A stretch of DNA of 64,000 bases, taken from the IMG/VR virus record IMGVR_UViG_3300033146_003879, positions 118,990 to 182,989 of that record; one strand, 5' to 3'. This DNA is from a virus (Duplodnaviria; Heunggongvirae; Uroviricota; Caudoviricetes). The notes beneath the pieces were generated by a model. The model did no database searches and was not told the DNA's origin. It was given only the letters and a program-made list of their open reading frames with translations. Position 1 is the stretch's first letter, and each line of letters begins with the position of its first letter. Below are positions 7,150-60,478 of this stretch, piece by piece. A program made the position numbers and the translations under genes.

Positions 7150-7165
7150 CTTCTTATACCATAAT
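7150..7165 (-). promoter_or_regulatory. copy 1 of recurrent promoter-like motif (plus strand cttataccataat; minus strand reads TGGTATAAG, an extended -10)
   Basis: Member of the 14-copy motif family. Oriented so that minus-strand transcription would enter the 5940-7150 non-coding island. Confidence 0.4.
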
Positions 7166-7177
7166 AATAATGGAGTT

Positions 7178-8332
7178 TTACTCGAAAGATAAGCCGTTCT
7201 TTATCGTATGGACAATCTCTTTTGTTGCGTTATTAGCTGTTCGGTAAGGGAGCTTGGTTATACGGGCTATGTCAGTTACTTTTACATTGCCTTCTTCGCC
7301 AGAATCAAGAATCTTGCGCATAGCAGCAAATACCTTTTTCTTAATAGGCTCTTTCTCAAACTCCTTCTCGAGGATATCCATATCAAGACCCATATAGCGT
7401 TCTTTCCAGGGGATATTTGTTGTGTTTATTGAGGAGTCATTAAATACTTTACGACGCTCCGCTATTGCCTTCTCTATGTCAGCTACCGGCAGACCAGTCG
7501 CTGCGGCAAGAAGGTTCTTATCGTATTCGCCTGTCCCGTACTCGTGTTCATATGCCTCAAATGCTTTGTCGAGATCAGACCACTGGCTAATACGGTGCTC
7601 CGGTGTATGGAGCATAGGGCCGTATTTATTAACATATCTGTGTAGTTTCTGCAGTTGGTTTGTTACGTGTGTTGCTAACTTCGCTTTGCTGGGGTCCCAT
7701 GTGTCGATTGCGTGTGATGCAAGACCTACTCCTTTTCCGTATAGAGACCCGTGACTAATTGACTTGCTGACGTTTATCTCACCGACACGTTTCATTATGA
7801 GGGGTTTAAGTGCCTGGAGGGCTTTGTCTTTTGAATCCATATTACCTGTCTCGAGATACTGTTTAGCCCAGTATCCTTCATTGTATTTCTGATCCCGTTC
7901 AGGAACAGGCTCCTTAACTACTTCCTTAACTACATCATCGATCGCATCAGGTATGCCGTCAGCAGCCTTTGCTTCTTTAATAAGCCCGGCTATACAGTAA
8001 GCCAATGAGGATGTTTTCATTATGTCTTGTCTGAGATCCTCGAGGAACTGATCGTCATCTTTATTCTCATCTAACCTTCTGAATCGAGACTTCGTTCGTG
8101 TTGGTATCGGCCCAGCGCTGTCCAGCGGTGATGGATCTATTCCCAACTTAGCTACGACACTCCTTAGAATATCGTTTTCTTGTAATAACCTTACTAGCTC
8201 TCCTTTATTCAGCGCATTAGTTGCTACATTCATACTCTCCGATCGGGCACCAGAGCTTGCTGTGATAGCAGCTCTCCTTCCGGTCTTCGCAACCGATTTC
8301 AGCACTGCTGATGGGTTTATTCCTACTACCAT
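7178..8332 (-). CDS. putative sigma-70-like / helix-turn-helix transcription factor (low confidence)
   Basis: C-terminal segment VTDIARITKLPYRTANNATKEIVHTIKNGL resembles a sigma region-4 HTH. Segment GLASHAIDTWDPSKAKLATHVTNQLQKL resembles region 2. Based on motif resemblance only. Confidence 0.3.
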   Translation of the reverse strand: MVVGINPSAVLKSVAKTGRRAAITASSGARSESMNVATNALNKGELVRLLQENDILRSVVAKLGIDPSPLDSAGPIPTRTKSRFRRLDENKDDDQFLEDLRQDIMKTSSLAYCIAGLIKEAKAADGIPDAIDDVVKEVVKEPVPERDQKYNEGYWAKQYLETGNMDSKDKALQALKPLIMKRVGEINVSKSISHGSLYGKGVGLASHAIDTWDPSKAKLATHVTNQLQKLHRYVNKYGPMLHTPEHRISQWSDLDKAFEAYEHEYGTGEYDKNLLAAATGLPVADIEKAIAERRKVFNDSSINTTNIPWKERYMGLDMDILEKEFEKEPIKKKVFAAMRKILDSGEEGNVKVTDIARITKLPYRTANNATKEIVHTIKNGLSFE

Positions 8333-8343
8333 TATGGCTCCTG

Positions 8344-9294: not shown

Positions 9295-9309
9295 TACGAA
9301 ACCTCTTTG

Positions 9310-9894
9310 TTATTTCTTCCCACGTCGGCGGTAGTTGTGCTCTGATTCTACAAGGGTGTTCACCATCTCTGGTCGCAATGACATGGATCCAGAATCAATG
9401 GCCGTCTGCAAGATAGGTAGTATTGCAGAAGGGGCTGCGCTTGTTGCTTGCGGAGCAAGTGCTAGGACTTCACCTACAAGGTCACGAGCACGTTTACTTC
9501 CGATTGCCTGGATCTCAGGTGATTTTGACAGAGATCGCACAATAGCGTCAGCTGTACTTAGTGGTTGATATTTTGCTGTAGTGAAATCGGAGAGTGTTGT
9601 CCCCAAGCCTTTTCCTGTTGCTTTTGCGGCTTCCTCAGGAGTATTAAATAACATATTGTACATCATCTCTTTTGCACGAGTGCTTCTATACAAGTTGCCG
9701 TAGTCACTCATGAGTCTTGATTGACCTGAAGTCTCCCATACAGGCGCTGCTTGTGTAATGTACTTCTGTTTTATAACATCACCGATGTCGTCAACGATAT
9801 CATCGAGAGCGAGAGCTCCTGCGAGAGCGCCTCCACCAAGGCCGAGTGTCAGTAACGCAGGTCCCATTTTCGCTTGTTTATCCATCATAATCAT
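9310..9894 (-). CDS. hypothetical protein
   Basis: 194-aa ORF, tightly packed within the minus-strand operon. Confidence 0.45.
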   Translation of the reverse strand: MIMMDKQAKMGPALLTLGLGGGALAGALALDDIVDDIGDVIKQKYITQAAPVWETSGQSRLMSDYGNLYRSTRAKEMMYNMLFNTPEEAAKATGKGLGTTLSDFTTAKYQPLSTADAIVRSLSKSPEIQAIGSKRARDLVGEVLALAPQATSAAPSAILPILQTAIDSGSMSLRPEMVNTLVESEHNYRRRGKK

Positions 9895-9928
9895 TACCTC
9901 AAAGTAAACTCAACTTCTGCCATTGTAA

Positions 9929-15200: not shown

Positions 15201-17101
15201 TTAACTGAATCAGGGTACACAGAAGATCTTCTGTTTATCAGCTCATAAAGAGCGGTAAACATCTGATCAATATACACAAGACTATCTTTTCCTGGTATTG
15301 TTGTGGTAGCCTCGTCTTGTGGTACTACTGGCCCTAACATTGTTGGAAATAGGTCTTTGTATGGCGCCGATGGGGTACCTCCCCACTCCTCTATGGCGTC
15401 GTAGGTTACGTTTGATAAGCGGGTTGCACCACCCGAAAAGAAACTTCCTCCAGACCCCGTCGACATAACGATGCTCGTCTCCCCTGTATGGAGAAAGTAG
15501 TCGAGATAATCATCGAGGTTTATTACTGTTCCATCAAGGAATGTTATCTTTTTCTCAGTAACAGTAAACATAGGTAAGAATGTGTCCTTCATGTATGCTG
15601 TACCGTCGCCAGGGTCAGGTGCACCTGTGTTGTGGTACAGGTAAGGATTGTTCTTATGGGAAGGTTTGTAGATGTCCCAAACTGGTACTTTCAGGCTTGG
15701 GTCAAACGTAGGATCTAGTTCTGTTGTTCCAGGCGCCATATTTGCTATAGCGTGTCCTAGTGATGCTGGTATGAATGCAAATTGAGCACTGGATGATGAT
15801 CCGTTTAAGTATTCGAAGTTTGTGTTTCCGGTTGAGGTTACGGTAGGGGTGTCGAACATTGATTTTTGTACCCCTTCTCTAGCAACAACAAATCCATAAG
15901 TTCCTGTATTTATGAAGTTAGCGTCGTATTTGGGGTGACCGTTTATCTCAGTGCTTGTGAGTTCGCCTGACACATCCCCTCGAGAAAACAAGAAGGGGTG
16001 GTGTCTTCCGTACGTAGGAACATCACCGTCATCAAGAGGTAGTTGATCATCAAATGAAACAGGTCTACCCTCAAACACAGGAGGAAACGCCGATGCTCCA
16101 GGGATCTCTATTCGGACACTACGTGGTTTTATTGTGGCTATGTAAGGTTTTTCTTCTCGGTTCTTCATGAATGTCATGTTGAGAGGGGTGGTCAACAAGG
16201 TGGATGGTGGTACTACCTCAGGGAATATCTTAACGTGAAGCGGGAATAAACCGTCATTAAACGTGCGTGCTGACCCAGCTGTAACAGACCCTAGTGCAGA
16301 TAACAAGTCACCTACAGTCATACTTGCAATGTCACACACAATGCGAATTGTAGTATACCTCTTTTTATTGTCAATAAGAACAGGATCCTCAACAAACGTA
16401 CCGTGCTTGTCTGCCTCAGTATTGTGCTCAACGATAATCGAGATGTTGTGATGTACTGCGGTCGTAAATATATCAGGGTTAGCACCCCCCTCATCAACGT
16501 ACAACATAAGAACTGTTTCTGCGTCGAAAGGAGATGGTTCGTCAGGTGATAGAGGTATCGCATGGTAGTATTCACCGTAACCTCCGAGCCCGTAGTTAAG
16601 AATCAGGGTGTAAGCGTCAGCTGTGTCAATAGATCCTGAAGAGTCCCAGTTACTTGCTGCCGCAAATCGAACCGGAACATATTGTAAGAGACGGCTGCCA
16701 GGAACACTTGTTCCGATAACACCAGAAAGGTCTCCCGGTTTCCATACTCGGATATTCACATCGCGGTCTTTCTTGTAGTAAGGGCTTCCGTAGGTCGCTT
16801 CCGGTGGGGGAGGAACAGCCGCAGGATGTCCCACAGCAGTTGCGCTAGGTTCACTTTGAGCGCTCATATACAGTTGGATCTTATCGAGGAACAACCTATG
16901 CTCAAGGCTTGACACCTCACTTTGGTTAATCCCATGCATTAGGCTAACCATCCGAGAATAAGCAGAACTACCGTAGAGCTCCGATTGACGAACGGGGTCA
17001 CAGTCCTTGTAAAAAATACCGCTGTTCTTAATGTTGTTCTTTTTGTAATCGCGAGCCATGAGTCTCCTCCTTGTTGTCACATCGAAATTATAGTAGAACA
17101 A
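12287..17101 (-). CDS. giant structural protein (1604 aa)
   Basis: Uninterrupted 4.8-kb ORF. First gene of the minus-strand structural operon, downstream of an AT-rich divergent control region. Confidence 0.6.
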   Translation of the reverse strand: MFYYNFDVTTRRRLMARDYKKNNIKNSGIFYKDCDPVRQSELYGSSAYSRMVSLMHGINQSEVSSLEHRLFLDKIQLYMSAQSEPSATAVGHPAAVPPPPEATYGSPYYKKDRDVNIRVWKPGDLSGVIGTSVPGSRLLQYVPVRFAAASNWDSSGSIDTADAYTLILNYGLGGYGEYYHAIPLSPDEPSPFDAETVLMLYVDEGGANPDIFTTAVHHNISIIVEHNTEADKHGTFVEDPVLIDNKKRYTTIRIVCDIASMTVGDLLSALGSVTAGSARTFNDGLFPLHVKIFPEVVPPSTLLTTPLNMTFMKNREEKPYIATIKPRSVRIEIPGASAFPPVFEGRPVSFDDQLPLDDGDVPTYGRHHPFLFSRGDVSGELTSTEINGHPKYDANFINTGTYGFVVAREGVQKSMFDTPTVTSTGNTNFEYLNGSSSSAQFAFIPASLGHAIANMAPGTTELDPTFDPSLKVPVWDIYKPSHKNNPYLYHNTGAPDPGDGTAYMKDTFLPMFTVTEKKITFLDGTVINLDDYLDYFLHTGETSIVMSTGSGGSFFSGGATRLSNVTYDAIEEWGGTPSAPYKDLFPTMLGPVVPQDEATTTIPGKDSLVYIDQMFTALYELINRRSSVYPDSVKRTELLINPETVSAVGFSIEVTDLASDLNNIHVDRWKRISPTTYTLPLIPLLLGTPSPTTPVYVGAILPTGFINIITPNAHGAEPKAYVVTDILGATKRSTYIGNVRDPGVNVGNFRSGGTIIGTNGAITTTNSGEGLPPFTPLPQQAIMRRPLPALESPEHGLVGDQFTGYSSIYSSLNLFLGGSTKRIYGGVNETKIEHTGDTATGYSIHFGDISDTISITHEPQASMHVVLSDLLSNLSMGQATTIAINDKSSGARLGGQAGDLVVDATVNSIYTTAVAGSDGTNGHDQRAFGRYNEASLLRRTVFTSAATNIDTYINVQHVLESLSDYSPPPAHDTLTIDTFTRFRTLLRKTYSTSLVQTYLKRTLNRSLPDAMVDNFTVDVDYYTDLKLSSSARGNCAKNRSVLFSAEYILALVYGISYESLTSTTYGDYITATTTTEKFYPAIESSRAATYTSAPQYDIAHIALFNPSIIATKTDATTDPTSASDTFVFNPIQLNTVPNTDTNPTSEKYRMSTYYREIDSPDSDLGSGSFAQSLGLLSKIKLAGATSTANKTKVFPFAMITLPVYAVSEVSPGVSRKYFNVDAANYIKKVTLIRSTPGVYAAGETRVDITNLYKGTERTVLDLGLTKYVADRDDSLGRNKDIVAYPPLAEAAKDYSATFIRQQYDASVQDSSGEFHVLQLADPTISSVDGTRETTLETMTMNDTLSDLSYYPDVSSPLIITRTATDIVFEDNNVLVSNPDMYTPPVPGKATLHTIAMAVSDSVLRELTFEQIAVDIKLNTPSTATDPLNLDHEIEISPINAFADLSLGISLEIDLVDDLVDVLHDHGLVLGTDPTVLSDDFTAPYSGITRAAIKVGDTAADHTQWSDAGSIPGLSVPITVSIGYLPLYFHDTDADLVPYSTIQDAIMYSADTENKFACTVNSGLLTAQNSDEFASQERTTVRPGKVVITQRMRNVKIYSTVKKGS

Positions 17102-17294
17102 AACAACAACGCAAATTTTTTAAGCAAAACACAAGAAAAACATAAGGTAGAGAAAATGTCAATAATCCTATGTGCGCGGGTGGCGCGGTATTAATTCTTA
17201 CGCGCGTTCGCGCCGGCGTAACTATTCTCTATATATTTTTTTCTTTCTTTAAAAAAGTTTTTTTCTGAGAGGAAACTTTTAAAAACGTGATTTT

Positions 17295-17570
17295 AGTCCC
17301 CAAATCAACGTAACTACCTGATAATACTACATGCACTTGGGGACTACTCGGGGACTTACTCTGATATTCGGGGACTTATTCCTCCTTTGCAAAGTAGCAT
17401 TAGTTGTATACTTTATTTAGTATCACAAGTGATACGTTAGGTTTACTGTAGTATACAATCCAAATAATTAAACGTCTTGTGTTCGTGTTTTTGTGTATTT
17501 CTGTGCAATGCTAGTCCCCAGATTTGCCGAGTAACTCCCCGGATCTTGGAATAACTCCCCAAATTTACCC
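17295..17570. promoter_or_regulatory. divergent control region with about 7 GGGGACT / AGTCCCC repeats
   Basis: agtcccca at 17295 and 17513, ggggact x3 at 17337-17385, actcccc at 17544 and 17564. Lies between the starts of 12287..17101 (-) and 17721..20115 (+). Confidence 0.45.
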
Positions 17571-20163: not shown

Positions 20164-20985
20164 TTAAGGTAGATGGTAATACACACCATCTACGTCTATG
20201 TCTATAAGGGCTTCAATTCGCCCTATAACCACTCCGGTCGCTACTGGACTATACGTAACAACCTCGTATGAGTCAGAATAATTGTAATCCAGAGATGTTA
20301 CGGTAAATGATAGATTATGCCTATCCCGCAGCATATCAACTGTCCTATCACCTAGTCGGGCTGGCATGCTCACGTTCGATTCTTTATTAAGTGTAAAGTA
20401 TAATGTAAGACTACTCATATCAGACACAACTGCGAAATACATAGTAAGTATGTAGCCGGAATAACGACCTACAAGCTCACACTCCATCACAGACCCGAGT
20501 AGTAGGTCACCGTCTTTCCTTAGAACCTCTTCACAAACAACATCTGTTATAGGCACGTCCGTGTCATCCGACTCCTCAGAATCATCAGCGACAGCGTCAT
20601 CATCAGCCGACTCCTCAGAATCAACAGTCTCATCGACACCACCAGCCGACTCATCAGAATCAACAGTCTCATCGACACCATCAGCCGACTCATCAGAATC
20701 AACAGTCTCATCGACACCATCAGCCGACTCATCAGAATCAACAGTCTCATCGACACCACCAGTAGCCTCCTCTGAGTCTACATCAGCAACTTCATCAGCA
20801 ACACAGATCGAGTCAATACACTCGAGCCTTGAATCACAGGTGTTATTATCGTAGCACTTTTCATGCCATCCTCCAACATCACCTGATCCTTTCGCCGCGT
20901 CTCCACCGCAGCTAACAACAAACATGTTCATCAAAACCACCAACAAAACCACCAACCACCCCTTTCTTCTTGTAACCTTAGTCAT
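20164..20985 (-). CDS. secreted lipoprotein with Cys-rich N-domain and acidic 13-aa tandem repeats (GVDETVDSDESAD x ~5)
   Basis: Start MTKVTRRKGWLVVLLVVLMNMFVVSCGG has GGAGG 7 nt upstream. Signal peptide plus lipobox VVSC. Repeats are visible in both protein and DNA. Confidence 0.65.
   Translation of the reverse strand: MTKVTRRKGWLVVLLVVLMNMFVVSCGGDAAKGSGDVGGWHEKCYDNNTCDSRLECIDSICVADEVADVDSEEATGGVDETVDSDESADGVDETVDSDESADGVDETVDSDESAGGVDETVDSEESADDDAVADDSEESDDTDVPITDVVCEEVLRKDGDLLLGSVMECELVGRYSGYILTMYFAVVSDMSSLTLYFTLNKESNVSMPARLGDRTVDMLRDRHNLSFTVTSLDYNYSDSYEVVTYSPVATGVVIGRIEALIDIDVDGVYYHLP
20569..20763. repeat. 5 x 39-bp tandem repeat inside the lipoprotein gene
   Basis: Unit ccgactcMtcagaatcaacagtctcatcgacaccaYcag repeated head-to-tail. 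Generates spurious shadow ORFs on both strands. Confidence 0.8.
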
Positions 20986-21225
20986 AACAACCTCCTGTTT
21001 TTTAACGTGGTTGTCTCCACATTGATATATACTACACAATAAAACCAGAAGTAATGGCTCAGACTACGCTTGCCTAGGCCTGTACGTAACTTCACGAGGT
21101 CTTTCTCCTCGCACACAGACATCTCAACACCTCCTCCTTTGTTGACATACCATACATATTCTTATACCTCAAAAACGCAGTTTTTATATCAAAAAAAGAA
21201 ACCCTGCAACTTAAGTAACAGGGTA

Positions 21226-24158: not shown

Positions 24159-24499
24159 TGGTGGAGGCGGCGGGAATCGAACCCGCGTCCTAAAAACCTT
24201 CAAGATAGATACTACATGTTTAGTCCGTCTTTACTAAAATCTTCGGCGCCAACGGACAGGCCCCTCGAAGTTTCCTACGCTAAAGTTTTCGTGGCATCTC
24301 CCACATAGAAAGGATCAACCCTTAGTCTCACAGTTGTGCGCCCCAATTGGTGTCGTGAGCACCCCTCCAATAGGACGGCAGCTTATGCTGCTATGAGTTC
24401 AGTTTTTGCGTCTCTGAACGTGCCGCTTTTTACGAGGCCCGCGGCGCCTCGACATGCATCTATTCTCTCCGCGAATCCAGTCGAAACCAGGTCGCCCCC
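24159..24499 (-). ncRNA. ssrA: tmRNA (ssrA-like), about 341 nt, phage-encoded
   Basis: Minus strand reads 5' GGGGGCGACCUGGUUUCGACUGGAUUCG ... GGACGCGGGUUCGAUUCCCGCCGCCUCCACCA 3'. The 7-bp acceptor stem (GGGGGCG / CGCCUCC) carries a G3.U pair. T-arm GCGGG-UUCGAUU-CCCGC with terminal CCA. Internal putative tag frame ends ...ACU GAA CUC AUA GCA GCA UAA (TELIAA*). Confidence 0.8.
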
Positions 24500-24907: not shown

Positions 24908-24917
24908 AACGCACCCC

Positions 24918-25274
24918 CTAAACACTACCTATATTATCAACAGTTAAGCTATCAGTAAACAATAGAGGGCTAAGTATGATACCGCCTTCCGATATTCGGT
25001 AACCATCTACCATACCGTATGAAGACCTAAAGTCCGTGGCTAGCATAGGGCACACCTCCGCCTCTACCACCATACCTGCATTAGATATCATATCACAAGG
25101 CATCAACAAGAACTTGTTTCTACTAAACATCTTTCCGAATGTCTTAAGCATATTTATCCTTATTTTATATAAACCAGAGGGAGACCTTGTATCATTCACC
25201 CTTGAGTAAATCCCCTCATATATCATTCTCCCAAGGAACTCTGAACTCTGGACACGAAGTACTTTTGTCCGCAC
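24918..25274 (-). CDS. small protein, paralogue family B member 2 (GTG start)
   Basis: KIRINMLKTFGKMFSRNKFLLMP. About 65 bp of conserved upstream sequence shared with B1 (minus-strand TTTACT-17-TAATAT promoter-like). Confidence 0.45.
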   Translation of the reverse strand: MRTKVLRVQSSEFLGRMIYEGIYSRVNDTRSPSGLYKIRINMLKTFGKMFSRNKFLLMPCDMISNAGMVVEAEVCPMLATDFRSSYGMVDGYRISEGGIILSPLLFTDSLTVDNIGSV

Positions 25275-25413
25275 GCCACACCCCCTAAACGTTACCTATA
25301 TTACCAACAGTTAGGTTATCAGTAAACAATAAAGGGTTAAGTATAACACCATCACCCATAACCTTAGCGCCTATACCGCCAACAGAAACCCCAAGCCCTG
25401 TAACTACTTACAG

Positions 25414-25429
25414 TATCTTATACCACAAT
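25414..25429 (-). promoter_or_regulatory. recurrent promoter-like motif, copy 2
   Basis: cttataccacaat. Minus strand reads TGTGGTATAAG. Confidence 0.4.
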
Positions 25430-25668
25430 AGCAGCTCGTTAAATGTCACTGTCTGCAATATTGTTCACCATAAAACCAGTTGTAAATAGTGTAGGTTGGT
25501 AATGCAACGCATCATGCGTGCCGTCATTTACTAGGTCCCTAGGAATACCTTACTTTATATATGCACAGTAATCTCACCGCCTCTTACCATATAGCACTCT
25601 CCAATAAACGCCCCTCCCGAAGGAGAGGCAACACTATAAGCAGCGAGCTGCGCCCGCTTCCTAATACT

Positions 25669-29807: not shown

Positions 29808-29891
29808 AGCACTACCCCTATCAAATAAAAATAAACAACCAACAAGCCCATAACATTACATTACAGGATCGATACACAGCATAAGTCTCAT

Positions 29892-29907
29892 TATCTTATA
29901 CCATAAA
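29892..29907 (-). promoter_or_regulatory. recurrent promoter-like motif, copy 3
   Basis: cttataccataaat, upstream of 29295..29807. Confidence 0.4.
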
Positions 29908-29992
29908 TATGAGAAAATAGAGGCAGTTATCCAACAGCCCGTAAAACCCGGTCTCTGTAGGCCAGGCCCGACAAAGGCCGGGATATAAGGGC

Positions 29993-30367
29993 TTACTGAT
30001 TCTTAATGTATGTCTTGATGACTTCGAGCGGTGCGCCGCCAGAAGACGTAACGTAATAAGACGGGGACCATAATTTCTTGTGCCGTCTTAATTCCGGGTA
30101 TAAAGCTCTGAGCTTTTTGCTTGTTGGCCCCTTAACTGCCTGCACTATAGAGGAGATTGACTCTGTCGAAGGGTATTCAATAAGGAGGTGGACGTGATCT
30201 AAATCGCCGTTACATTCCTCAAGCGTGATCCCCTTCTTCTTGAACGCCTGTCTTGCATAATATGCGAAGTCTCCAAGTATTCTCGGAGAAAGCACCTTTC
30301 TCCTATACTTCGTTACCAATACGAGGTGTGCATGCAAGCTGCTTATGTTTGTTCTTGACTTCCTCAT
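29993..30367 (-). CDS. tnpA: IS200/IS605 Y1 (HUH) transposase TnpA
   Basis: LHAHLVLVTKYRRKVL ... DHVHLLIEYP (HuH) ... LWSPSYYVTS (catalytic Tyr). Confidence 0.85.
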   Translation of the reverse strand: MRKSRTNISSLHAHLVLVTKYRRKVLSPRILGDFAYYARQAFKKKGITLEECNGDLDHVHLLIEYPSTESISSIVQAVKGPTSKKLRALYPELRRHKKLWSPSYYVTSSGGAPLEVIKTYIKNQ

Positions 30368-30389
30368 AACCCTAAGTATACTCTTTTGT

Positions 30390-31508
30390 ATGAAAGTGTC
30401 AAGAGCATATAAATACCGCCTTTACCCTACGCGAGAACAAGAGATTAAGTTGTCTCAGTTCGTTGGAAACAATAGATATCTCTGGAACTTCGTTCTATCC
30501 GCTCTCGAAGGCAAGAAGTGGGACCGATTCGCTGTTTCCAAACAACTTCCTTCACTTAAGTCTGAAATACCATTCCTTAAAGAATCTCCGTCTCAAGCGT
30601 TTCAACAATTGTTAATTGATATGGATGCTGCATTTAAGAGCTTCTTTCGGAAGAAACACGGATATCCGAAGTTTAAGAAACGCGGTATGCACGACTCTTT
30701 TAGAATACCGGTTGTGAAGTCCCCTGAATCTATAAACAAGAATAGCTGCGTCTGGATACCAAAATTGGGTTTTGTGGAACTGCGTTTGTCGCGTGAGGTG
30801 AGAGGAGAAGCGAAGTCTATCACTGTGTCTCGGAGAGCGGGAAAATGGTTTGTCTCAATATTGACGAAAAGCGAGATGCAGGAAACAGGCGGAAAGACAG
30901 GAAATAGTGTAGGAATTGATCTCGGCGTTAAACACTTCGCGACAACGTCGGGCGGAAAGCATATACATGCTCCAGAGGAAAGAGTGCGCTATTTAGAGAA
31001 GAGAATAGAGCGCATGCAGAGGAAAGTCAGTAGAGCGAAGAAAGGATCAAGCAACAGAAGCAAGTTGCGTCTTAAATTAAGTAGACTCCACTTAACTCTC
31101 GCGAATGTGAAAGAAGACTTCTTGCACAAGGTGAGCACACAGTTAATCAAGAACCACGATTTACTTGTGCTCGAAGACCTTGGTGTAAAGGAGATGACAG
31201 AAGCAGGAGCGAGAAAAGCGAAGTTAAATAGAGCAATCTTGCGTCAAGGTTGGTATAAATTTAGGACTTTACTTGAGTATAAGAGTATGTGGTATGGCTG
31301 TGCCGTAGTGTTCGTCCCGCCTCAATTCACGAGTCAGCGCTGTAGCGAATGCGGGAATATAAACGCAGCAAACAGAAAGACACAATCGTCATTTAAATGC
31401 CTTTCGTGTGGCCATACTGAAAACGCTGATATAAACGCAGCTAAGAACATTTTCACCGTCGGGCAGACGGGTAGAGCCTTTGGAGACGCCGCGCTAGCGG
31501 GTCGATGA
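30390..31508 (+). CDS. tnpB: TnpB (OrfB, RuvC-like, RNA-guided nuclease family)
   Basis: N-terminus KVSRAYKYRLYPTREQ, GIDLGVKHFATTSGG (RuvC-I), C-terminal zinc finger CSECG...CLSCGH, DINAAKNI. Confidence 0.85.
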   Translation: MKVSRAYKYRLYPTREQEIKLSQFVGNNRYLWNFVLSALEGKKWDRFAVSKQLPSLKSEIPFLKESPSQAFQQLLIDMDAAFKSFFRKKHGYPKFKKRGMHDSFRIPVVKSPESINKNSCVWIPKLGFVELRLSREVRGEAKSITVSRRAGKWFVSILTKSEMQETGGKTGNSVGIDLGVKHFATTSGGKHIHAPEERVRYLEKRIERMQRKVSRAKKGSSNRSKLRLKLSRLHLTLANVKEDFLHKVSTQLIKNHDLLVLEDLGVKEMTEAGARKAKLNRAILRQGWYKFRTLLEYKSMWYGCAVVFVPPQFTSQRCSECGNINAANRKTQSSFKCLSCGHTENADINAAKNIFTVGQTGRAFGDAALAGR

Positions 31509-37656: not shown

Positions 37657-37819
37657 CTCTCATAAATTGTTATTAAAAGTCGCTCGACCTACGTCTTACC
37701 TCAATGCTCATGATCACCCCCGGTTAGTATCAACAGCAGCGTTCTCTTTCGCAATAGGAAGCAGCGTAAACATATCCGTACCCCAGTCTCCTATAAAAAT
37801 TAAAGATATATTGTTACAG

Positions 37820-37835
37820 TATCTTATACCACAAT
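37820..37835 (-). promoter_or_regulatory. recurrent promoter-like motif, copy 4
   Basis: cttataccacaatac. Confidence 0.4.
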
Positions 37836-37874
37836 ACATAAAAAATAGGGCGTAGAATTAACCACGCCTTATCT

Positions 37875-43274: not shown

Positions 43275-43781
43275 AATAGTAACCTCCTCCTCCTTTTGCT
43301 ATAAAAAATGTGGCTTCCGCCAGTAAAACATCCTGCAGTAGTTAGCAAGACAACGTCACACAGACATCCTCGTGTGGCAATAACGGCTCCCTTATATAGC
43401 AGGGAACTGCAGACGTGAGTGTAGAGCAAAGGGCCACCTTCGCTACGCACACTCACTAATTTTATGCACAGAGTCCATCTTGTGCAACCTCCTATCGCGG
43501 AAGGGTTCGGCCTCACCCGTAGTAGTAAACTCATACACCGGTGAGGAGATATATGAGCCGTAGAAGCATAGCCGTGGAGCCAGGAAGCTATCCCAACTTC
43601 GCACGAACTATAACTTTTACACACGTTGCTTAAGCGTGCAACCTGGCTCCTGCAGGTATAGGGTATGTCCAGTCTTCACTACGGGATAGGACATACAAAC
43701 GTCCCGCAGAGCCCCGTTCTTACACGAGGATTTTACCGTCAGCTAATACGGCTTAATGAATATACATTGATATTCATTCAA

Positions 43782-43797
43782 CTTCTTATACCACATA
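43782..43797 (-). promoter_or_regulatory. recurrent promoter-like motif, copy 5
   Basis: cttataccacatatctaggatttttacact. Confidence 0.4.
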
Positions 43798-43807
43798 TCT
43801 AGGATTT

Positions 43808-46442
<2,635 letters not shown>

Positions 46443-46578
46443 TACCCTCCTCTTTCGTCTCTACCTCAATCTCTACGGGGTTGTGCTCGACAGCCTCCCC
46501 AACAGGAACAGGCTTCTCTTTAAGGAACATCTTAAATACATTAAACATGATTACCTCCAAGGTAAATAAATTATCCAT

Positions 46579-46594
46579 AATCTTATACCATAAA
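46579..46594 (-). promoter_or_regulatory. recurrent promoter-like motif, copy 6 (divergent region; a separate TATAAT + GGAGG serves the + gene)
   Basis: cttataccataaacaccctccTATAATttac. Confidence 0.4.
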
Positions 46595-46633
46595 CACCCT
46601 CCTATAATTTACACAGAATAGATGGAGGGTAAT

Positions 46634-47506
46634 ATGGGAAGCTTTCTTAAGTATGCTAAATTAATGCTCGACATAAATATCGGAGATATTATGTTAACCG
46701 GTCGATTCAAGAATCACCGCGAGGTAGTAAAAACAATGGGTACTGACGAGCTTGGGCAGCCACTGATAAATGGGAAGAAACTACTTGATATGCGCATCGA
46801 GAAGAAACTCCCTTTTGAGAAGAGAAGTAAGAAGACAAAGGAAGAGTCAGGAAAGAGTGTAAAGAAGTTCAGTAAGAAAGCGGACCAAAAGTCAATGGTG
46901 ATAGACGGCGACAAGATACAAGGCGTAGGCATGAGAAGAACACTGCATGACTATCTTGATGAAAAAGGAATTAAAGGCGTTGCTGTTAATGATGCGAAGA
47001 CCGGGAATGTCGAGGTGACTGTAGATGCCCCAACAAAAGACGATGCGGTGCGCGCTCTTGAAGAACTAAAGGTGATCGCAAACAACCGTGTTGGTGAACC
47101 GCTGCGCTACAATATGCCTAAGCGTCCTCTACCGTTACGGGACGCAGTAATAACAAACGAGGACATGGAGCGGTTCAACACAAAGTCATACGAAAGCTTT
47201 CTCCGATCACGTAAGCTTCATCCTGAAATGCGGTTCTCAACAGGTAGACTTCCGCTTGAAGATGTCATAAGGGAAACAGCAGAACGCTATCGACTACAGC
47301 GCGGAGAAGGTGATGTTGCCTTGCAAGGACTCGTCACAGCAAGAGCATTACGGCAACTCCTAAACAAGGAAACACAATACGAATTCATGCGTAGAGAGAA
47401 CCTTGTTCGCAGTAAAGCCGAGGGGTATGCGTTACTCGCTAAGATAAAAGCGATGCGTGAGGCAAATGGAAGAGGAGACGACACCGACTGGCCATCAAAA
47501 AAATAA
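46634..47506 (+). CDS. protein with acylphosphatase-like domain
   Basis: IDGDKIQGVGMRRTLHDYLDEKGIKGVAVNDAKTGNVEVTV matches the acylphosphatase V-x-G-x-VQGV-x-FR signature. GGAGGG RBS. Confidence 0.45.
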   Translation: MGSFLKYAKLMLDINIGDIMLTGRFKNHREVVKTMGTDELGQPLINGKKLLDMRIEKKLPFEKRSKKTKEESGKSVKKFSKKADQKSMVIDGDKIQGVGMRRTLHDYLDEKGIKGVAVNDAKTGNVEVTVDAPTKDDAVRALEELKVIANNRVGEPLRYNMPKRPLPLRDAVITNEDMERFNTKSYESFLRSRKLHPEMRFSTGRLPLEDVIRETAERYRLQRGEGDVALQGLVTARALRQLLNKETQYEFMRRENLVRSKAEGYALLAKIKAMREANGRGDDTDWPSKK

Positions 47507-48016
47507 ATAACGCCACCACCACAGTATGCGGGAATGGGGCACTATCAATGCATAACAACAGCTGTCTTCAGCCAATCGCTCCAAACCGCTACGCCGTGAA
47601 GGCTCGGTGGATTGAGATGTTATGCATTGATAGTTGCACACCAGATTTGATTTTTACTTCCAGTTTTCTCTGGAACCCAAGTTTCACCACTGCCTCCTGT
47701 GTGGATCCCCCGGGGAGCAACTCTTGTTTATCCCGGCGTCGCAGTGCTATCGCGACGGAGCACACCCTCTGTTTTTAAGTGGTATCGGGTGCTCCCTTCC
47801 ACTGGTTATTGATGGCTGTTCGCGCAGCTCGGGATGTGAGTCCCGCCATCTAGGTATGGCAATCGTCACCCTAACCACCCTACTTACCGCGAGGTGGAAG
47901 CGTCTGACAGTTTTCACTGTCGGTCGGGTGCTAACTAACGTGTTCGACCATTACGCTCGCATAGTTTTCCATCTATACGAGTATGACGTATACATCGGGA
48001 GTATACTTCATATCAT

Positions 48017-48032
48017 ATTCTTATACCACAGA
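48017..48032 (-). promoter_or_regulatory. recurrent promoter-like motif, copy 7
   Basis: catattcttataccacagaatacgattttttgcagg. Confidence 0.45.
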
Positions 48033-48083
48033 ATACGATTTTTTGCAGGGTATTTAGGGCGGATCTATCTGGAACCCGGATCG

Positions 48084-48136
48084 AAAAAAATATACTTACT
48101 CCCAGGGGACACCGCTCGTCAGCGGCTACCCCTGGT
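48084..48136 (-). terminator. rho-independent terminator (ccaggggacaccgctcgtcagcggctacccctgg plus U7 on minus)
   Basis: Long GC hairpin. Minus strand continues GAGUAAGUAUAUUUUUUUCG. Confidence 0.55.
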
Positions 48137-48378
48137 TTCAGGCACCCCTCTACAACTAGGCTCTAGCCTAGACCAATACCCTTGAGGGGAAAGTATATTG
48201 GTCACCGCGTTTCTTTTTACCCATGAGGCTCGCGGCTAGCCTCTGCGGATGACCTTTCTCAAGGCTCCGCTTCCTTTATTCTCTTCATGATCTCTGCACC
48301 TCCCAGTGCTTGCCCGGTGACCAACCCGGATAATGGCCAATAGTATCCCGGCTGCCTGGCAGGGATACTTCATATCAT
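48084..48378 (-). ncRNA. candidate about 290-nt structured ncRNA bounded by a promoter (48379-48394) and a terminator (48084-48136)
   Basis: No ORF with an RBS. GC-rich, with multiple hairpins. Discrete promoter-to-terminator unit on the minus strand. Confidence 0.3.
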
Positions 48379-48394
48379 GTTCTTATACCATAGA
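48379..48394 (-). promoter_or_regulatory. recurrent promoter-like motif, copy 8
   Basis: catgttcttataccatagaatcacagtttttgcagg. Confidence 0.45.
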
Positions 48395-48605
48395 ATCACA
48401 GTTTTTGCAGGTGCCTATCTGGAAGCCGAAAAAAGAAACGCACTGCTGAGTACTACGCAGTTTGTTCCTTTTACCACGTGGCGTTCGTGGATTTGTGCAT
48501 CGTCTTTTCTATGTACTACGGGGCGGATTGCAGTTCCCCTCATGTCTATTTATATTTTGTTTTACATCAGCGCCAACACGGCGAGCGCTGATAGACGGCC
48601 AAGGC

Positions 48606-49115: not shown

Positions 49116-49232
49116 CTTTATAGACAGTATGTTATCAACACACCTCCTACAAAGAGAGAGCCCACCTCAATCAGGGCAGCACGCATACACCTATACACGT
49201 ACCAGCGATCTACACAATGTATAGACTACCAT

Positions 49233-49248
49233 ATTCTTATACCACAGA
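49233..49248 (-). promoter_or_regulatory. recurrent promoter-like motif, copy 9
   Basis: catattcttataccacagaaaac. Confidence 0.45.
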
Positions 49249-49518
49249 AAACAAGTTCTTACGAAAAAAGAGAAGGGCACATATTATAAACACATGCCCT
49301 TTGTCGACCTACCAGATCTTCCCGGTATTTCTATCCCGCCCCGGTCGGCGGTAAGCAGTGTGTGACCCCCGAAGGGGTCTCTTACTCTTCTTTGTCGCGG
49401 CTTGCCTTGCGGGCGAATTTCTTCGCTCCGCGTACAATCCAATAGCCCGCCACGTAGGCTATTGCAAGGTCTACTGCGACCACAGCCGCTTTTACAACAC
49501 TTCCCATAAAATTCTCCC

Positions 49519-50367: not shown

Positions 50368-50460
50368 AATAGTACCTCCTAAGTACTTTCCCGGAGACTA
50401 ATCCGGATTAAGTCTTATCAGCACGCAGACTACTGCGCGTACCGAAACATATACATTCAC

Positions 50461-50476
50461 ATTCTTATACCACAGA
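50461..50476 (-). promoter_or_regulatory. recurrent promoter-like motif, copy 10
   Basis: cacattcttataccacagaatgtgagttcttgcat. Confidence 0.45.
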
Positions 50477-50548
50477 ATGTGAGTTCTTGCATAAAAAATA
50501 AACGCACAAAGAGCAGCCACCAACCCCGAAGGGTTGGCAGCGGAGATA

Positions 50549-52676: not shown

Positions 52677-52790
52677 AATAGTACCTCCTAAGTACCTTCC
52701 CGGCGACCAACCCGGATAATAGTCATCGCACCAACCACACGGTCAATACTTATAGGAGGTATGCTATTACATGCGCAAATCTCCTATCAT

Positions 52791-52806
52791 ATTCTTATAC
52801 CACAGA
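52791..52806 (-). promoter_or_regulatory. recurrent promoter-like motif, copy 11
   Basis: catattcttataccacagaatctgaatttttacact. Confidence 0.45.
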
Positions 52807-52848
52807 ATCTGAATTTTTACACTGATTCTAGGCACCTATCTGGAAGCC

Positions 52849-53513: not shown

Positions 53514-54041
53514 AACTACCTCCTGCGGTATGAAAAATAATATCTTAGTAATGTATTTTGTTAAGAAACATAAGGGGCGCCGCGCAGGTTTCTGTACAGA
53601 TCCGAAAGGATCCATGCTCCACCTGCGCATGATTCAGTTTCCTTCGCCGGAACGCACGTTCCGGTTCAGATACGTACAGCATGTCGGCCGAACCACACCG
53701 TTTGCTGCACGAGAAGTAAGTAGAGGTGCACCCCTAATTACTTCTTTGATTTTTCAGAGCTCGCATTACATTCCTGCTCCCTAGGGTTTACTCCCTGACC
53801 TACCGCCCGATTGTTTTTTATAGCAGTATTCACCGGTAGGTGCCCTCTGCAACCGCACTCCAAGGTACGGAGGTCCTTAATTTATATTGCGGTTCGACCC
53901 TGCCCGCTAACTCTGTTGCCCTCTGAGAGGTGTCGGCTGAGTTTACATGCGCCTTGTGTGTGCTTGGTGGTTAACCTAACGTCTCGCCCAGACGCTACGT
54001 ATCACTACGTAGTAAAGAATCACGTGAAGATACTTTATCTA

Positions 54042-54057
54042 ACTCTTATACCACAAA
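54042..54057 (-). promoter_or_regulatory. recurrent promoter-like motif, copy 12 (a TATAAT for the + gene follows at about 54073)
   Basis: ctaactcttataccacaaacctcagatttttcacactacTATAAT. Confidence 0.4.
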
Positions 54058-54114
54058 CCTCAGATTTTTCACACTACTATAATTACCATGTACCACTCGA
54101 TGGAGGGAGCCGTG

Positions 54115-54594: not shown

Positions 54595-54787
54595 TACAAA
54601 CAGGCTGCATAATTCCAAAGGGAGACCCCAAGGCCCTCCTTATTTCAAGTTACTTATAATTCATCGAGCTATAACTGCGCGCCCTCTGTCTAGTGCCTTT
54701 GATATCTGGGTCAAAAGGCGCTGCTGCATGTTATCCCACACTATTTAATAAATTACATCTGCGCAGGATGAAGTGAACACAAGAAAA

Positions 54788-54848
54788 AATAAAACAACAA
54801 AACAACAAAACAACAAAGCAATAAAGCAATAAAGCAATAAAACAACAT
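54788..54848. repeat. short tandem repeats (aacaaaac)x3 followed by (caataaag)x3
   Basis: aaaacaacaaaacaacaaaacaacaaagcaataaagcaataaagcaataaaa, in a 1.1-kb non-coding stretch. Confidence 0.8.
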
Positions 54849-55648
54849 CGGCGCAGTCCCCTGAGTGTTCGGGGTACGTAGCGCCATGGTAGCATTTTTA
54901 ACCTTTCGGCCATTACACACACCCACATTTCTGTAGGTAGCCACCAGAAACACAGCAGATAAGTTCTGCCGCAAACTCCTGCGCTGCTCATCATAGGTTT
55001 CCTCTGCTAGCAACCCCTTTGGTAGGGTTCAACGACTCCCGCCGTTTATTGTCCAACATTTTCCGCCTCACAGTTCACCTTGTGGGATTCCTGCGTCATC
55101 ATTTTTCAGATGAATAAGTTTCTTTTCAGAATCAGCGCCTACACCGCTTTTTACCATTTGTTTTCTTGATTAATAGTCAAGTAGTTGATTTCGAGTCGCC
55201 GGTGTAGCCGATAACCTAGATGCCTTTTGAGCACCCGTGCGGTCCTACGCCTCGTTGTTTCAAGTTAGACCGGGTAAGGTCCTGAAACGGGAATCTTTTC
55301 TTGAACCGCGTGATTTCGCACGTGGCCCAAAAGTCCTTACGTAAAGCCCTTGCTCCTCAGCTCGAACAATACACAGTGCAACCCCCTATTGCCTCTCAGC
55401 TCACCTACCATACTACTGATAGGCATTACCACTTCTGCGCCGCCAGTTGGCCTTGCATTCCCGTGATAACGGTAGTTGTACTCCTCTCTACGGTCACGGT
55501 TTAACCCGCGCGCATCCGTGGTTCACTTTCCACTAAATGCCTTTTAGGCTCATCACTGAGCTTACCCTAACGACAAGAAGGCTGCCGTCGCAAAGATATA
55601 CGGTAGATGTTTCTAACTAGGTTAGCATACAAACATATACCTTTGCAA

Positions 55649-55664
55649 CTACTTATACCAGGTT
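55649..55664 (-). promoter_or_regulatory. recurrent promoter-like motif, copy 13 (divergent variant: cttataccaggttttactgtgagttttacact)
   Basis: Oriented towards the 54600-55645 non-coding stretch. Confidence 0.35.
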
Positions 55665-55847
55665 TTACTGTGAGTTTTACACTTATTTCTCAGCTAGTCT
55701 CTGTTTCTGTCTCGAAGTTAGATTTAATACCACTTAGCCATCTATCCCGTGTCTTTGTAGACACCATAAAATCGTGATACCAATCTGCTGCAGTATCGTT
55801 GCCCCACGGCTTCGGTCCCCATGTTCCCATATTAAACCTCCAGCTTA

Positions 55848-56886: not shown

Positions 56887-56892
56887 GACAAC

Positions 56893-58224: not shown

Positions 58225-59322
58225 TTACTTATTAGACTTACGTCTATTACAGCTCTTACAAAGCACCTGGCAGTTAGCGGAGATGGTTTTCCCACCTTCG
58301 CTCCACGGTGTAATGTGGTCAGCCTCCATGTCCTCTATGATAAACTTCTTCTTGCACATAGAACATTTCTTTTTCTGTTTCTCATACACAGCTATTTTCA
58401 TAGCAGGTGTGAACGCACGGATTGATAAGTAGCGCTCATCTCCGGTAAGAACGTAGGAGTACATGCCGCGTTTTGCTGTGACGTCATCATCAAGTATTAG
58501 TCTAGCGATCTCGACTTCGAGGGCATCGGTGTCATAGGTGTTATCCTTGAACGCATTGTACAGGTAGCCCCACTCAACACCCTTCATGAATTTTGTTCTG
58601 CCCTTATTGTATTTCACTGGAAAAGTATCCTCTACCCATGTCACTACCGATTGAAAATACCTCCACAGTGCTCCTGCGTTTTGTTCTCCTTGGTGTTTTG
58701 CCATGTACGCTTCGATATTATCATCCGATATCCATCGAATCGCAGTCTCGAGATAATCTTGCCGAATAGCGGATCCAGTCAGGTACACACTTCCGATACG
58801 GTGTGCTGTGCACCCGGTCTTGCTGAAGCGCGCTTTAGCAGCAGTTACCCACGGCCCAGAATAAACAGCGTTGCGCAACTCTTGATCAGTAAGCTTCATA
58901 CCTGAGATATTAACCGTTTTAAACCACTCAAGCTTGTCGCTGTCCCCACCCTCACAGAAGTACACCATTAACTCGTAATTAAGAACCTCTTCTTTCTTAT
59001 CGGATGGGAGGTTGCTAAACAACATACCCTCAACAGAGAAGTCATCGTTAACATACTGGCATATAGACAACGTGCGCTGCTGACCATCTATTATCTCGAA
59101 TGATTCTTCTGAATTCACTGCCCAGTAGATAGCACTGAGCGGGAACCCTTTCATAACAGTGTCAATAACAGCAGCGCGCTGCTTATCATTATACACAAAC
59201 TCTCTCTGATAAGGAGGCCTGATGTCAAGTTTTCCATCTAACCCAACAACACCCCCTTCGTCAGCATCCTTGAATCCATGAACAACATCTCTTACTGTAA
59301 CTCTTTTTAATTCAACTCGCAC
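58225..59322 (-). CDS. DUF262 (ParB-like, DGQQR) + HNH nuclease fusion, GmrSD / type-IV-restriction-like
   Basis: N-terminal EIIDGQQRTLSI. C-terminal CSMCKKKF...ADHITPWSEGGKT...NCQVLCKSCNRRKSN (HNH). Confidence 0.65.
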   Translation of the reverse strand: MRVELKRVTVRDVVHGFKDADEGGVVGLDGKLDIRPPYQREFVYNDKQRAAVIDTVMKGFPLSAIYWAVNSEESFEIIDGQQRTLSICQYVNDDFSVEGMLFSNLPSDKKEEVLNYELMVYFCEGGDSDKLEWFKTVNISGMKLTDQELRNAVYSGPWVTAAKARFSKTGCTAHRIGSVYLTGSAIRQDYLETAIRWISDDNIEAYMAKHQGEQNAGALWRYFQSVVTWVEDTFPVKYNKGRTKFMKGVEWGYLYNAFKDNTYDTDALEVEIARLILDDDVTAKRGMYSYVLTGDERYLSIRAFTPAMKIAVYEKQKKKCSMCKKKFIIEDMEADHITPWSEGGKTISANCQVLCKSCNRRKSNK

Positions 59323-60415
59323 TTGATTCTCCTTTTCTTCTTATTAAAACTCTAGCGTACGGGACAACTACTACCTCTTCTGAGACCATATACAAGTCTC
59401 CGTCCACCGCTCCTCTTTTTTGAACATCCCTACGGTACTCCCTGTGCTCTACCGTATAGGGGCGTACCCCTATTTCCGTACCAGATCCTGCTATCCCTAA
59501 CCCAATAACCTCAAATTGTTCAGGATTATACTTAGATAGGAACGTCACAGGGACACCCATGACACCGTCATAGTCCTCTGGTATGTCAGAAACCTTGTCG
59601 ATATTTATAGCATCGTAGTTATAATATCTTGTATACAGCAGAGGATCATATTTACGGTACATTAATAGGTCTACGTGCCTCTTTGTAATATCCAGGTTTG
59701 TAAACCAGCAAATGTTTCCAAACTTTCGTAATTCGTAATCTGAACCGCCTCTCTCCCGCGCACCGCCAACAGGAGAACGGAAACTCATAGCACCACTTCT
59801 ATACCCTAACCATACTCTGTCTTCCTTTATTAATGCAAATATCGCTTTATACGTCAACGCATTCATGTTACCTATAATCAGGAACTGTTTGTTATTTGAA
59901 ACAAGCGCATGCATGAACTCTCTGAACAAAGAGAATGGAGGATTTGTAACAACTACGTCAGCCTCACGCATTAAAGCTAAGCACTCTTCACTGCGAAAAT
60001 CACCATCACCAGCAAGAGCGGTAGCCACATTACCATCATGCAGTAACAGGTGTTCGACGTCAAATATGTTTACCGACCCGTCACCGGTGTAATCGCGTAC
60101 CTCTGTGATCTCAATCTTTATAGGTGCTCCCCGGTCACTCTCTGCTATACCTTGCATATCGCTAATAGAAACCTGATCCCCGATTATAGGAGAGCTGACG
60201 TAACTTGTAGCTATAAGCTTCTTCAGCCCGAGTATATTAAATTGCATAGCGAAGTACTTGAAAAAGTTACTCTCGAAAGGGTCGTCTGCATTACAGTACA
60301 CAGTTTTCCCTCTAAAGTAATGCTTATAGTGCTTTAGCTCCTTCTCAATATCTGATAACTGAGTGTAGAACTCGTCATTCTTATTCTGCTTCGCATTCCG
60401 TAAACTAGCGTTTGC
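59312..60415 (-). CDS. N6-adenine DNA methyltransferase (NPPF motif IV)
   Basis: NDEFYTQ near the N-terminus. VVVTNPPFS. Size and layout fit gamma-class adenine MTases. Confidence 0.65.
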   Translation of the reverse strand, partial: ANASLRNAKQNKNDEFYTQLSDIEKELKHYKHYFRGKTVYCNADDPFESNFFKYFAMQFNILGLKKLIATSYVSSPIIGDQVSISDMQGIAESDRGAPIKIEITEVRDYTGDGSVNIFDVEHLLLHDGNVATALAGDGDFRSEECLALMREADVVVTNPPFSLFREFMHALVSNNKQFLIIGNMNALTYKAIFALIKEDRVWLGYRSGAMSFRSPVGGARERGGSDYELRKFGNICWFTNLDITKRHVDLLMYRKYDPLLYTRYYNYDAINIDKVSDIPEDYDGVMGVPVTFLSKYNPEQFEVIGLGIAGSGTEIGVRPYTVEHREYRRDVQKRGAVDGDLYMVSEEVVVVPYARVLIRRKGESSAS

Positions 60416-60462
60416 CATAATTAACACATCCTCAATAAAATGTTGTATAAGATACCATCCAC

Positions 60463-60478
60463 TATCTTATACCACAAA
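60463..60478 (-). promoter_or_regulatory. recurrent promoter-like motif, copy 14
   Basis: cttataccacaaacaac, 35 nt upstream of the MTase start. Confidence 0.45.

Follow-up and report, generated by a model that had tools for sequence, protein, structure and literature searches.

What reads a promoter-like motif that recurs fourteen times, always in one orientation, through the accessory region of a large uncultured phage? The motif lies in a stretch of 64,000 nucleotides (positions 118,990 to 182,989 of IMG/VR record IMGVR_UViG_3300033146_003879, a member of the Caudoviricetes), which we call the window and number from its first letter. An initial annotation had described the motif as an extended -10 element on the minus strand and had pointed to a sigma-like gene at 7178..8332 as a possible source of its reader. 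Judging from sequence and placement, we regard the copies with high confidence as promoters of some kind, and very probably as the main promoters of the accessory region of this ~180 kb phage. Our preferred answer to the question of the polymerase, namely that a phage-encoded sigma factor directs it to the motif, is a tentative one.

The 9-mer CTTATACCA (TGGTATAAG on the minus strand) has 14 exact matches in the window, all on the plus strand, against a chance expectation of 0.74 and a maximum of 4 in 100 shuffles; the count agrees with the fourteen positions and the single orientation first listed. The most over-represented multi-copy 10-mer of the window is TGGTATAAGA, with 13 copies where 0.19 are expected. 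The 9-mer core of the long consensus originally proposed holds for every copy, but the long form suits only a subset: the 17-mer TTCTTATACCACAGAAT is exact at three sites and lies within three mismatches at 6 of the 14. A degenerate copy at 21161 (AGGTATAAG) makes a fifteenth; a T-run hairpin precedes it and the usual AATATG follows. Between 43 and 62 kb, canonical sigma-70 matches are not enriched (26 against 27.2 expected), and no promoter-like class besides the TATAAG motif is over-represented. Literature searches for TATAAG, TGGTATAAG and the variant TGTTATAAG returned nothing relevant.

To describe the anatomy of the motif, the 14 copies were anchored on the 9-mer and numbered on the minus strand with TATAAG at -12 to -7. 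In this alignment A-30, T-15, G-14, G-13, all six bases of TATAAG and G-1 are invariant, and T-17, R-16, A-6 and T-2 are present in 13 copies. Information summed over positions comes to ~30.7 bits, and the motif far exceeds an ordinary -10 element in length and conservation, in keeping with the earlier remark. Read along the strand of the genes it precedes, it is indeed TGn + TATAAG: every copy has TG at -15/-14, one base before the hexamer, and the TRTG of the Gram-positive "-16 region" occupies -17 to -14 in 13 of them. The layout TRTGnTATAAT is that of extended -10 promoters of Gram-positive bacteria. A-11 of a sigma-70-type hexamer is found in all 14 copies, and -7 is the sole core position that departs from the primary-sigma consensus, being G rather than T in every one. 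In primary sigma factors, T at -7 is among the two most conserved -10 positions. A generic sigma-70 scan, which demands T at -7, recovers none of the 14 copies; the form of TGGTATAAG in which G-7 is changed to T is TGGTATAAT.

Upstream of the core lies a block, GTGTAAAAA or CTGCAAAAA, with T-G at -34/-33 and A at -30. The TG stands in exact register in 6 of the 14 copies, a TG[TC]AA-like block can be seen in ~10 of 14 in the 9-mer listing once small shifts are permitted, and the copies at 25417, 29895 and 37823 are without it. This block had been taken for a UP-like element. Alignment of the upstream regions bears out a conserved feature there, with its invariant A and its -35-like TG in six copies, but not that placement: the block occupies the -35 position, at a spacer of 17 bp, and reads as a degenerate -35 hexamer nTGYAA.

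Position and orientation are those of promoters. From 20 to 64 kb nearly all genes lie on the minus strand, and every copy sits between minus-strand genes and points the same way. The statement that all copies are intergenic holds relative to the minus-strand genes but not relative to every mechanically listed open reading frame (ORF), for the copies at 48020, 48382 and 54045 fall inside plus-strand ORFs; these ORFs occupy stretches that we read as non-coding RNA. A hairpin followed by a T-run lies within ~70 nt upstream of 8 of the 15 copies, the other seven being without one, and copies so preceded have the form of composite terminator-promoter cassettes. At six copies an ORF with an AGGAGG-type ribosome site starts 33-117 nt past the 9-mer, and the predicted transcripts from many copies open with a stem-loop. 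It was also considered whether the conserved NTG after the motif is the start codon of a leaderless mRNA, but the frames stop within 2-13 codons and are not conserved.

Several copies have their surroundings in common. A leader module recurs at 48382, 50464 and 52794 and an upstream module at 48382 and 52794, which indicates cassette duplication. Some copies share 49-70 nt including flanks, and similarity between copies stops 24-70 nt out; no terminal inverted repeats or target duplications were seen around them. A 35-nt leader element (..ATCCGGGTTGGTCRCCGGG..) can be delimited downstream of three copies, at 48305..48339, 50382..50416 and 52691..52725 (minus strand), and in two of these cases the ribosome site and start codon region that come next are the same, TAGGAGGTACTATTATG.

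The motif is conserved in relatives, here metagenomic phage contigs numbered L003 to L026. Relatives with ~40-48% protein identity hold it at syntenic sites: exact TGGTATAAG follows directly after the sigma homologue in L008 (at 3769), L009 (2540) and L010 (1870), where the homologue is 40% (L008) or, by tblastn, 46% (L009 and L010) identical to the window protein. L026, which has only a MYG1-like protein in common with the window (48% identity), carries four full copies of cTG[TC]AAAAACTCrTATTyTrTGGTATAAGAATATG flanked by unrelated sequence, and the block at copy 8 is 82.6% identical to L026 3683-3751 over 69 nt. Overall, promoter blocks of relatives and window are 85-93% identical over 31-39 nt, against ~75% for the best coding segments. 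In the L020/L011 lineage the motif takes the form TGTTATAAG, in which the "n" of TGn differs (G to T) and TG and TATAAG are retained, as the extended -10 reading predicts; the leader behind the L020 copy is 93% identical over 30 nt to that at 21161. All copies found in relatives have G at -7. Among L013 to L017, the most distant relatives, a canonical TTGACA-17-TATACT or TATAAT stands behind the homologous gene instead, and the site is therefore a promoter position across the group. A scan of IMG/VR for the 17-mer gave seven single hits, about the estimated chance number, of which L003 (contig 3300022305_001428) alone looks real. It has three intergenic copies on one strand, TGGTATAAGAATAATGTA or TGGTATAAGAAAAGTGTA, at 6132, 6688 and 11677 (plus strand), before small genes. 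No protein common to L003 and the window was detected, and L003 may match a part of the source genome outside the window; hence we do not call it unrelated. Megablast of 10 kb against the INPHARED phages found no match, and the ligase and protease-like protein produced distant tblastn hits only (<41% identity). The phage thus appears to be without a close cultured relative.

A candidate reader is encoded beside copy 1. The 384-aa product of the sigma-like gene has by itself no match in Pfam, nor by sequence in the PDB. A profile of its 15-member family matches sigma factors only (RpoD, RpoS and SigB chains), aligning with RpoD regions 2-3 (best E 1.8e-5) and spanning nearly the full length of Staphylococcus aureus SigB, and NCBIfam sigma models match 2-3 of the 15 members (best E 2.9e-9). 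An AlphaFold model of mediocre quality (mean pLDDT 64, pTM 0.31) gave sigma factors as all of its top 50 Foldseek matches in the PDB, with probabilities of 0.98-1.00 and low TM-scores. Similarity and predicted fold thus support membership of the sigma-70 family, as the initial annotation had supposed. In the profile alignment to RpoD, the sequence STYATWWI of sigma-70, whose aromatic residues we take to contact the -10 non-template strand, stands opposite STHVTNQL of the window protein. Homologues come from metagenomes only; none were found in IMG/VR or in bacterial contigs taken as one genome per species.

We prefer, at slightly less than even weight, the reading in which the motif defines a middle promoter class recognised by this protein. 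The reader would be a bacterial RNA polymerase core carrying the divergent sigma, and the promoter would consist of a weak -35-like nTGYAA (with its invariant A-30), 17 bp and an extended -10 element T-R-T-G-G-TATAAG, with transcription expected to start at the conserved T-G 5-6 nt beyond TATAAG. A canonical promoter of host type would drive the sigma gene, which would come first; the motif promoters would be told apart from host-type TATAAT promoters by their invariant G at -7; and the TATAAG class would then form a middle regulon of DNA-metabolism genes, anti-restriction genes and non-coding RNAs. This reading is preferred because G at -7 is invariant and because canonical TATAAT-type promoters precede the sigma gene. 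Such promoters with T at -7 also stand before the sigma gene or its operon in relatives (TTGAAA-17-TATGAT in L011, TTGACA-17-TATTCT in L017 and TATAAT in L012). Since they occur beside TATAAG promoters, two discrete classes coexist in these genomes.

Several observations weigh against a phage sigma as the reader. Ten of the 11 core positions agree with the Gram-positive primary-sigma consensus TRTGnTATAAT. The region looks like an immediate-early host-takeover region, with many small genes, a methyltransferase and a promoter and terminator for each unit, and such a region would need the unmodified host polymerase unless the sigma were injected. The sigma gene is the last in a run of ~10 kb begun by the 1604-aa protein, not obviously an early position; distant relatives that have the sigma homologue carry canonical promoters at the syntenic site; and in L016 a TATAAG-type element precedes the sigma gene itself. 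Finally, co-occurrence is the only link between the 384-aa protein and the motif.

These points lead to the first alternative, that the copies are immediate-early promoters of the Gram-positive extended -10 ("-16 region" TRTG) class, served by the host RNA polymerase in unmodified form and its primary sigma. Selection for strength, together with duplication of cassettes, would then account for their extra conservation, as for the early promoters of T4 or the host-takeover module of SPO1. The almost complete TRTG (13 of 14), the invariant TG and TATAA, the invariant A-30 and a correctly spaced -35-like TG in six copies are what a primary sigma would use; the accessory or anti-restriction cargo, the terminator-promoter cassettes and the duplicated leader modules fit as well, as do the canonical host-type promoters at the syntenic site in distant relatives, and the strong AGGAGG ribosome sites point to a host that makes heavy use of Shine-Dalgarno sequences. 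However, this alternative must accept G in place of a near-universal T in every copy, in the window and in relatives, where selection for strength should yield T. Promoters with T at -7 in the same genomes show that no general drift of the lineage explains the G, and the failure of the generic sigma-70 scan at all 14 copies counts in the same direction. We consider this alternative a real, if doubtful, possibility.

In a second alternative, which we think unlikely, the host polymerase is modified or redirected by another phage factor, or acts with a host alternative sigma. One candidate scheme is sigma appropriation together with an activator bound at the TGYAAAAA box, on the model of MotA and AsiA of T4; another would follow Thermus phage P23-45, with a factor that blocks recognition of the -35 and leaves only extended -10 promoters active. 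Conservation extends over ~38 bp, CTGYAAAAA and ATTYT included, in L026 and some of the window copies, which exceeds the needs of a -10 element, and the three window copies that lack the upstream box suggest subclasses. However, no candidate activator or appropriator was identified in a phage most of whose proteins have no match in Pfam or PHROGs, the box is unlike the MotA box, and in two window copies as well as in L008 and L009 it lies 2-3 nt out of register. Other known promoter types were compared (sigma-54, TGGCAC-N5-TTGC; sigma-28, TAAA-N15-GCCGATAA; the MotA box; TcdR/BotR, TTTACA/GTTATA), and the motif matches them poorly or in part. That the copies are no promoters at all but a dispersed repeat of a mobile element (including a transposed miniature element), a hotspot of recombination or an operator to which a protein binds is very improbable: the similarity of 49-70 nt among some copies and a TnpB/IS605-type element in the window and in L020 could be cited for it, but that similarity ends within 24-70 nt without terminal repeats or target duplications, the asymmetric core always points with the downstream genes, placement relative to terminators, ribosome sites and start codons suits a promoter, and relatives conserve the motif amid unrelated flanks.

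What the copies would transcribe bears on their interest. The initial annotation had them precede genes or "long leaders"; genes do lie downstream, but the leaders are largely independent non-coding units, namely a GOLLD-like RNA, a tandem hairpin-RNA array and two structured RNAs, and a further copy (25417) heads an operon whose last member is a tmRNA gene (Table 1). The tmRNA gene, for which no separate promoter is obvious, begins 4 nt past the stop of a 140-aa ORF, and the nearest motif upstream of it is the copy at 25417. Between that copy and the tmRNA gene lie two ~55-nt elements (25280..25335 and 24910..24965, minus strand) that encode the C-termini of small paralogous peptides (..PLLFTD[NS]LTV[GD]NIG[NS]V*), each followed by GGGGGTG and the start codon of the next ORF. 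We call the GOLLD-like RNA so because its score lies under the Rfam gathering threshold of 150 bits; an 87-aa ORF at 54731..54994 that overlaps it is probably spurious. The two structured units behind copies 7 and 8 are G+C-rich, fold far better than shuffled sequences and have no match in Rfam; the shorter includes an 8-codon mini-ORF behind GGGAGGTG. L020 and L026 likewise have G+C-rich intergenic gaps of 250-700 nt. With permissive thresholds, the tmRNA and the GOLLD-like RNA are the only Rfam matches in the window and six related loci.

The array behind copy 1 comprises six units in 1.2 kb, each with a stem of 6-7 bp and a 3-nt loop (..GAT-AAY-ATC..) followed by a G+C-rich structured segment, and it ends in a hairpin and T-run. 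Equivalent arrays lie in L008 (3780..5430) and L009 (2550..3520), so that three arrays of 6-9 units follow one plan: TGTnT, a hairpin of 6-9 bp with loop AAY or TAT, and a G+C-rich segment of 95-285 nt; units of the window array also have a TTAGAY tail. Across the 21 hairpins of the three arrays pairing is kept through 33 double changes against 9.6 in shuffles; the hairpins were chosen by a palindrome scan, which makes the percentage paired partly circular. Five of the six such hairpins of the whole window fall in the array, where 0.52 are expected, and their G-U pairs are standard pairs only on the strand that the promoter would transcribe. The array has no match in Rfam and could be the precursor of several processed RNAs or a protein sponge. 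A mini-ORF M-x-x-D-N-I suits the window and L008 but not L009, while the hairpin is kept in all three, and we take the peptide to be a by-product. Promoters of the N4 virion polymerase are hairpins with a short stem and a 3-nt loop. The array hairpins, with stems of 5-7 bp, are alike in both respects, and DNA hairpin promoters of this type were considered and set aside, no N4-like polymerase being detectable.

Joining these observations to the preferred reading gives a fuller picture, in which the phage sigma would retarget host polymerase to an 11-bp TRTGnTATAAG, G at -7 would separate phage from host promoters, and the regulon, in an undescribed clade of ~180 kb phages, would consist largely of structured non-coding RNAs. 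Its RNAs would be the GOLLD-like RNA, the tmRNA, a hairpin-headed tandem array present in three phage lineages and at least two unclassified RNAs. Taken whole, this picture is speculative, and we hold it with distinctly less than even confidence.

The protein cargo includes an NAD-dependent DNA ligase (behind the copy at 46582), a MYG1-like protein (50464), a run of genes with a radical-SAM protein (29895) and, behind 60466, an EcoRI-like adenine methyltransferase with a GmrSD/HNH nuclease. Most window proteins, among them those of 1585, 1604, 863 and 621 aa, have no match in Pfam or PHROGs, and neither the 1604-aa nor the 1585-aa protein matched a PDB chain by sequence. A TnpB/IS605 OrfB-type gene (30345..31508, plus strand; Pfam OrfB_IS605 and Cas12f1-like TNB domains) faces the other way inside the run of minus-strand genes, with a palindromic TTGACA-16-TATACT pair at 30355/30402; the gene is also present in L020, L021 and L022 and stands directly beside the sigma homologue in the first two. 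Between the divergent 1604-aa operon and the 863-aa plus-strand gene, ~7 copies of GGGGA(C/G)T or AGTCCCC at 17300..17560 may be a set of operators or another class of promoter, and are a candidate for a late motif. Within ORF 20164..21039, four exact copies of TGGTGTCGATGAGACT at 20626..20758 (minus strand) are spaced by 39 nt and therefore encode a 13-residue tandem repeat.

Table 1. Motif copies, the candidate sigma gene and non-coding features of the window
Feature	Coordinates	Strand	Context or evidence
Copy 1	7147..7181	-	Starts 17 nt past the sigma-like stop codon; at the head of the tandem hairpin-RNA array
Degenerate 15th copy, AGGTATAAG	21155..21189	-	Hairpin and T-run upstream; 46-aa ORF, then 273-aa ORF downstream
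Copy 2	25411..25445	-	Heads small ORFs and the tmRNA gene; without nTGYAA block
Copy 3	29889..29923	-	Hairpin and T-run upstream; gene run including radical-SAM protein downstream
Copy 4	37817..37851	-	Hairpin and T-run immediately upstream
Copy 5	43779..43813	-	After the NAD-ligase stop codon; predicted transcript opens with a 5' stem-loop
Copy 6	46576..46610	-	Divergent intergenic region; 43-aa ORF, 227-aa ORF and NAD-dependent DNA ligase downstream
Copy 7	48014..48048	-	Strong hairpin and T-run upstream; heads a ~500-nt structured unit, apparently non-coding
Copy 8	48376..48410	-	Heads a ~300-nt structured unit closing in hairpin and T-run
Copy 9	49230..49264	-	13-pair hairpin and T-run upstream; 169-aa ORF downstream
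Copy 10	50458..50492	-	Hairpin and T-run upstream; MYG1-like 282-aa gene begins 96 nt past the 9-mer
Copy 11	52788..52822	-	Hairpin and T-run upstream; leader and Shine-Dalgarno in common with copy 10
Copy 12	54039..54073	-	First convincing ORF ~400 nt away
Copy 13	55646..55680	-	~390 nt upstream of the Rfam-matching part of the GOLLD-like RNA
Copy 14	60460..60494	-	EcoRI-like adenine methyltransferase begins 47 nt past the 9-mer, then GmrSD/HNH nuclease
Divergent sigma-70-family protein (supported), 384 aa	7178..8332	-	Candidate reader of the motif
Canonical-looking TTGCGT-16-TATAAT	17087..17114	-	Before the 1604-aa gene (ATG 17059) that opens the sigma-gene run; consensus match only
tmRNA gene	24159..24499	-	Rfam, 173.6 bits; tag peptide AKTELIAA*
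GOLLD-like RNA	54858..55252	-	All 416 positions of Rfam RF02032 matched; 63.3 bits, E 8e-16
Structured unit, apparently non-coding	48072..48374	-	Between copy 8 and a strong hairpin and T-run; fold z-score -4.2
Structured unit, apparently non-coding	47505..48012	-	Downstream of copy 7; fold z-score -5.0
Tandem hairpin-RNA array	5965..7146	-	1.2 kb behind copy 1 (7153), between sigma-like and protease-like genes; without convincing genes

If the copies are promoters, one short motif annotates most transcription units of the accessory region in a phage with almost no recognisable proteins, and several seemingly empty gaps become independent RNA genes with a promoter and terminator of their own, one of them GOLLD-like. 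To our knowledge, the function of GOLLD RNA is still unknown; should a phage-sigma RNA regulon prove true, RNAs of this type would gain a defined promoter and a window of expression. The invariant G at -7 would mark either a new phage sigma specificity or a host primary sigma that tolerates or prefers G, and the motif can serve as a search key for more members of the clade. On the sequence evidence, what sets this system apart from those it resembles is the fixed G, together with a phage sigma that looks cognate and the wealth of large non-coding RNAs in the cargo.

With the extended -10 promoters of Gram-positive bacteria the motif has in common T-R-T-G one base before the hexamer, TATAA, a -35 that is weak or can be dispensed with and, in the copies that have a -35-like TG, a spacer of 17 bp; it differs in its G at -7 in every copy, in the conserved A-6, T-2 and G-1 and in its ~31 bits. 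A second comparison is with the promoter-early stem-loop (PeSL) cassettes of T4-like phages, small composite terminator and promoter sequences between variable genes (PMC4122927, PMC2839356). Here too cassettes lie in the plastic part of a large phage genome, with conserved blocks beside otherwise unrelated sequence, and the layout of a stem-loop terminator followed by a conserved promoter between variable ORFs is found at 8 of the 15 window copies; PeSL-like recombination at these cassettes is suggested by the duplicated modules only. The window phage belongs to an unrelated lineage, its consensus is different, and several of its cassettes carry non-coding RNAs.

Phage-encoded sigma factors offer the remaining comparisons. 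The T4 late promoter TATAAATA is read by the phage sigma-like gp55, and gp36, the sigma of phiEco32, reads a -10-like element. By analogy, the window would show the same combination of a -10-like element whose 3' end differs from that of TATAAT, little or no -35 and a phage-encoded sigma-family protein; the sequences differ, and the window sigma has regions 2-4, not region 2 only. No sliding-clamp or co-activator system was identified for the window phage. In SPO1, host sigma A is followed by gp28 and then by gp33/34. No sequence relationship to SPO1 was found, but the SPO1 cascade and its host-takeover module have the order proposed for the window, a phage sigma gene behind a host-type promoter and then a phage promoter class, and SPO1 likewise has many short operons, each with its own promoter and terminator. 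The middle and late promoters of SPO1 are unlike TATAAT, whereas the window motif departs from the host-type consensus at essentially one core position.

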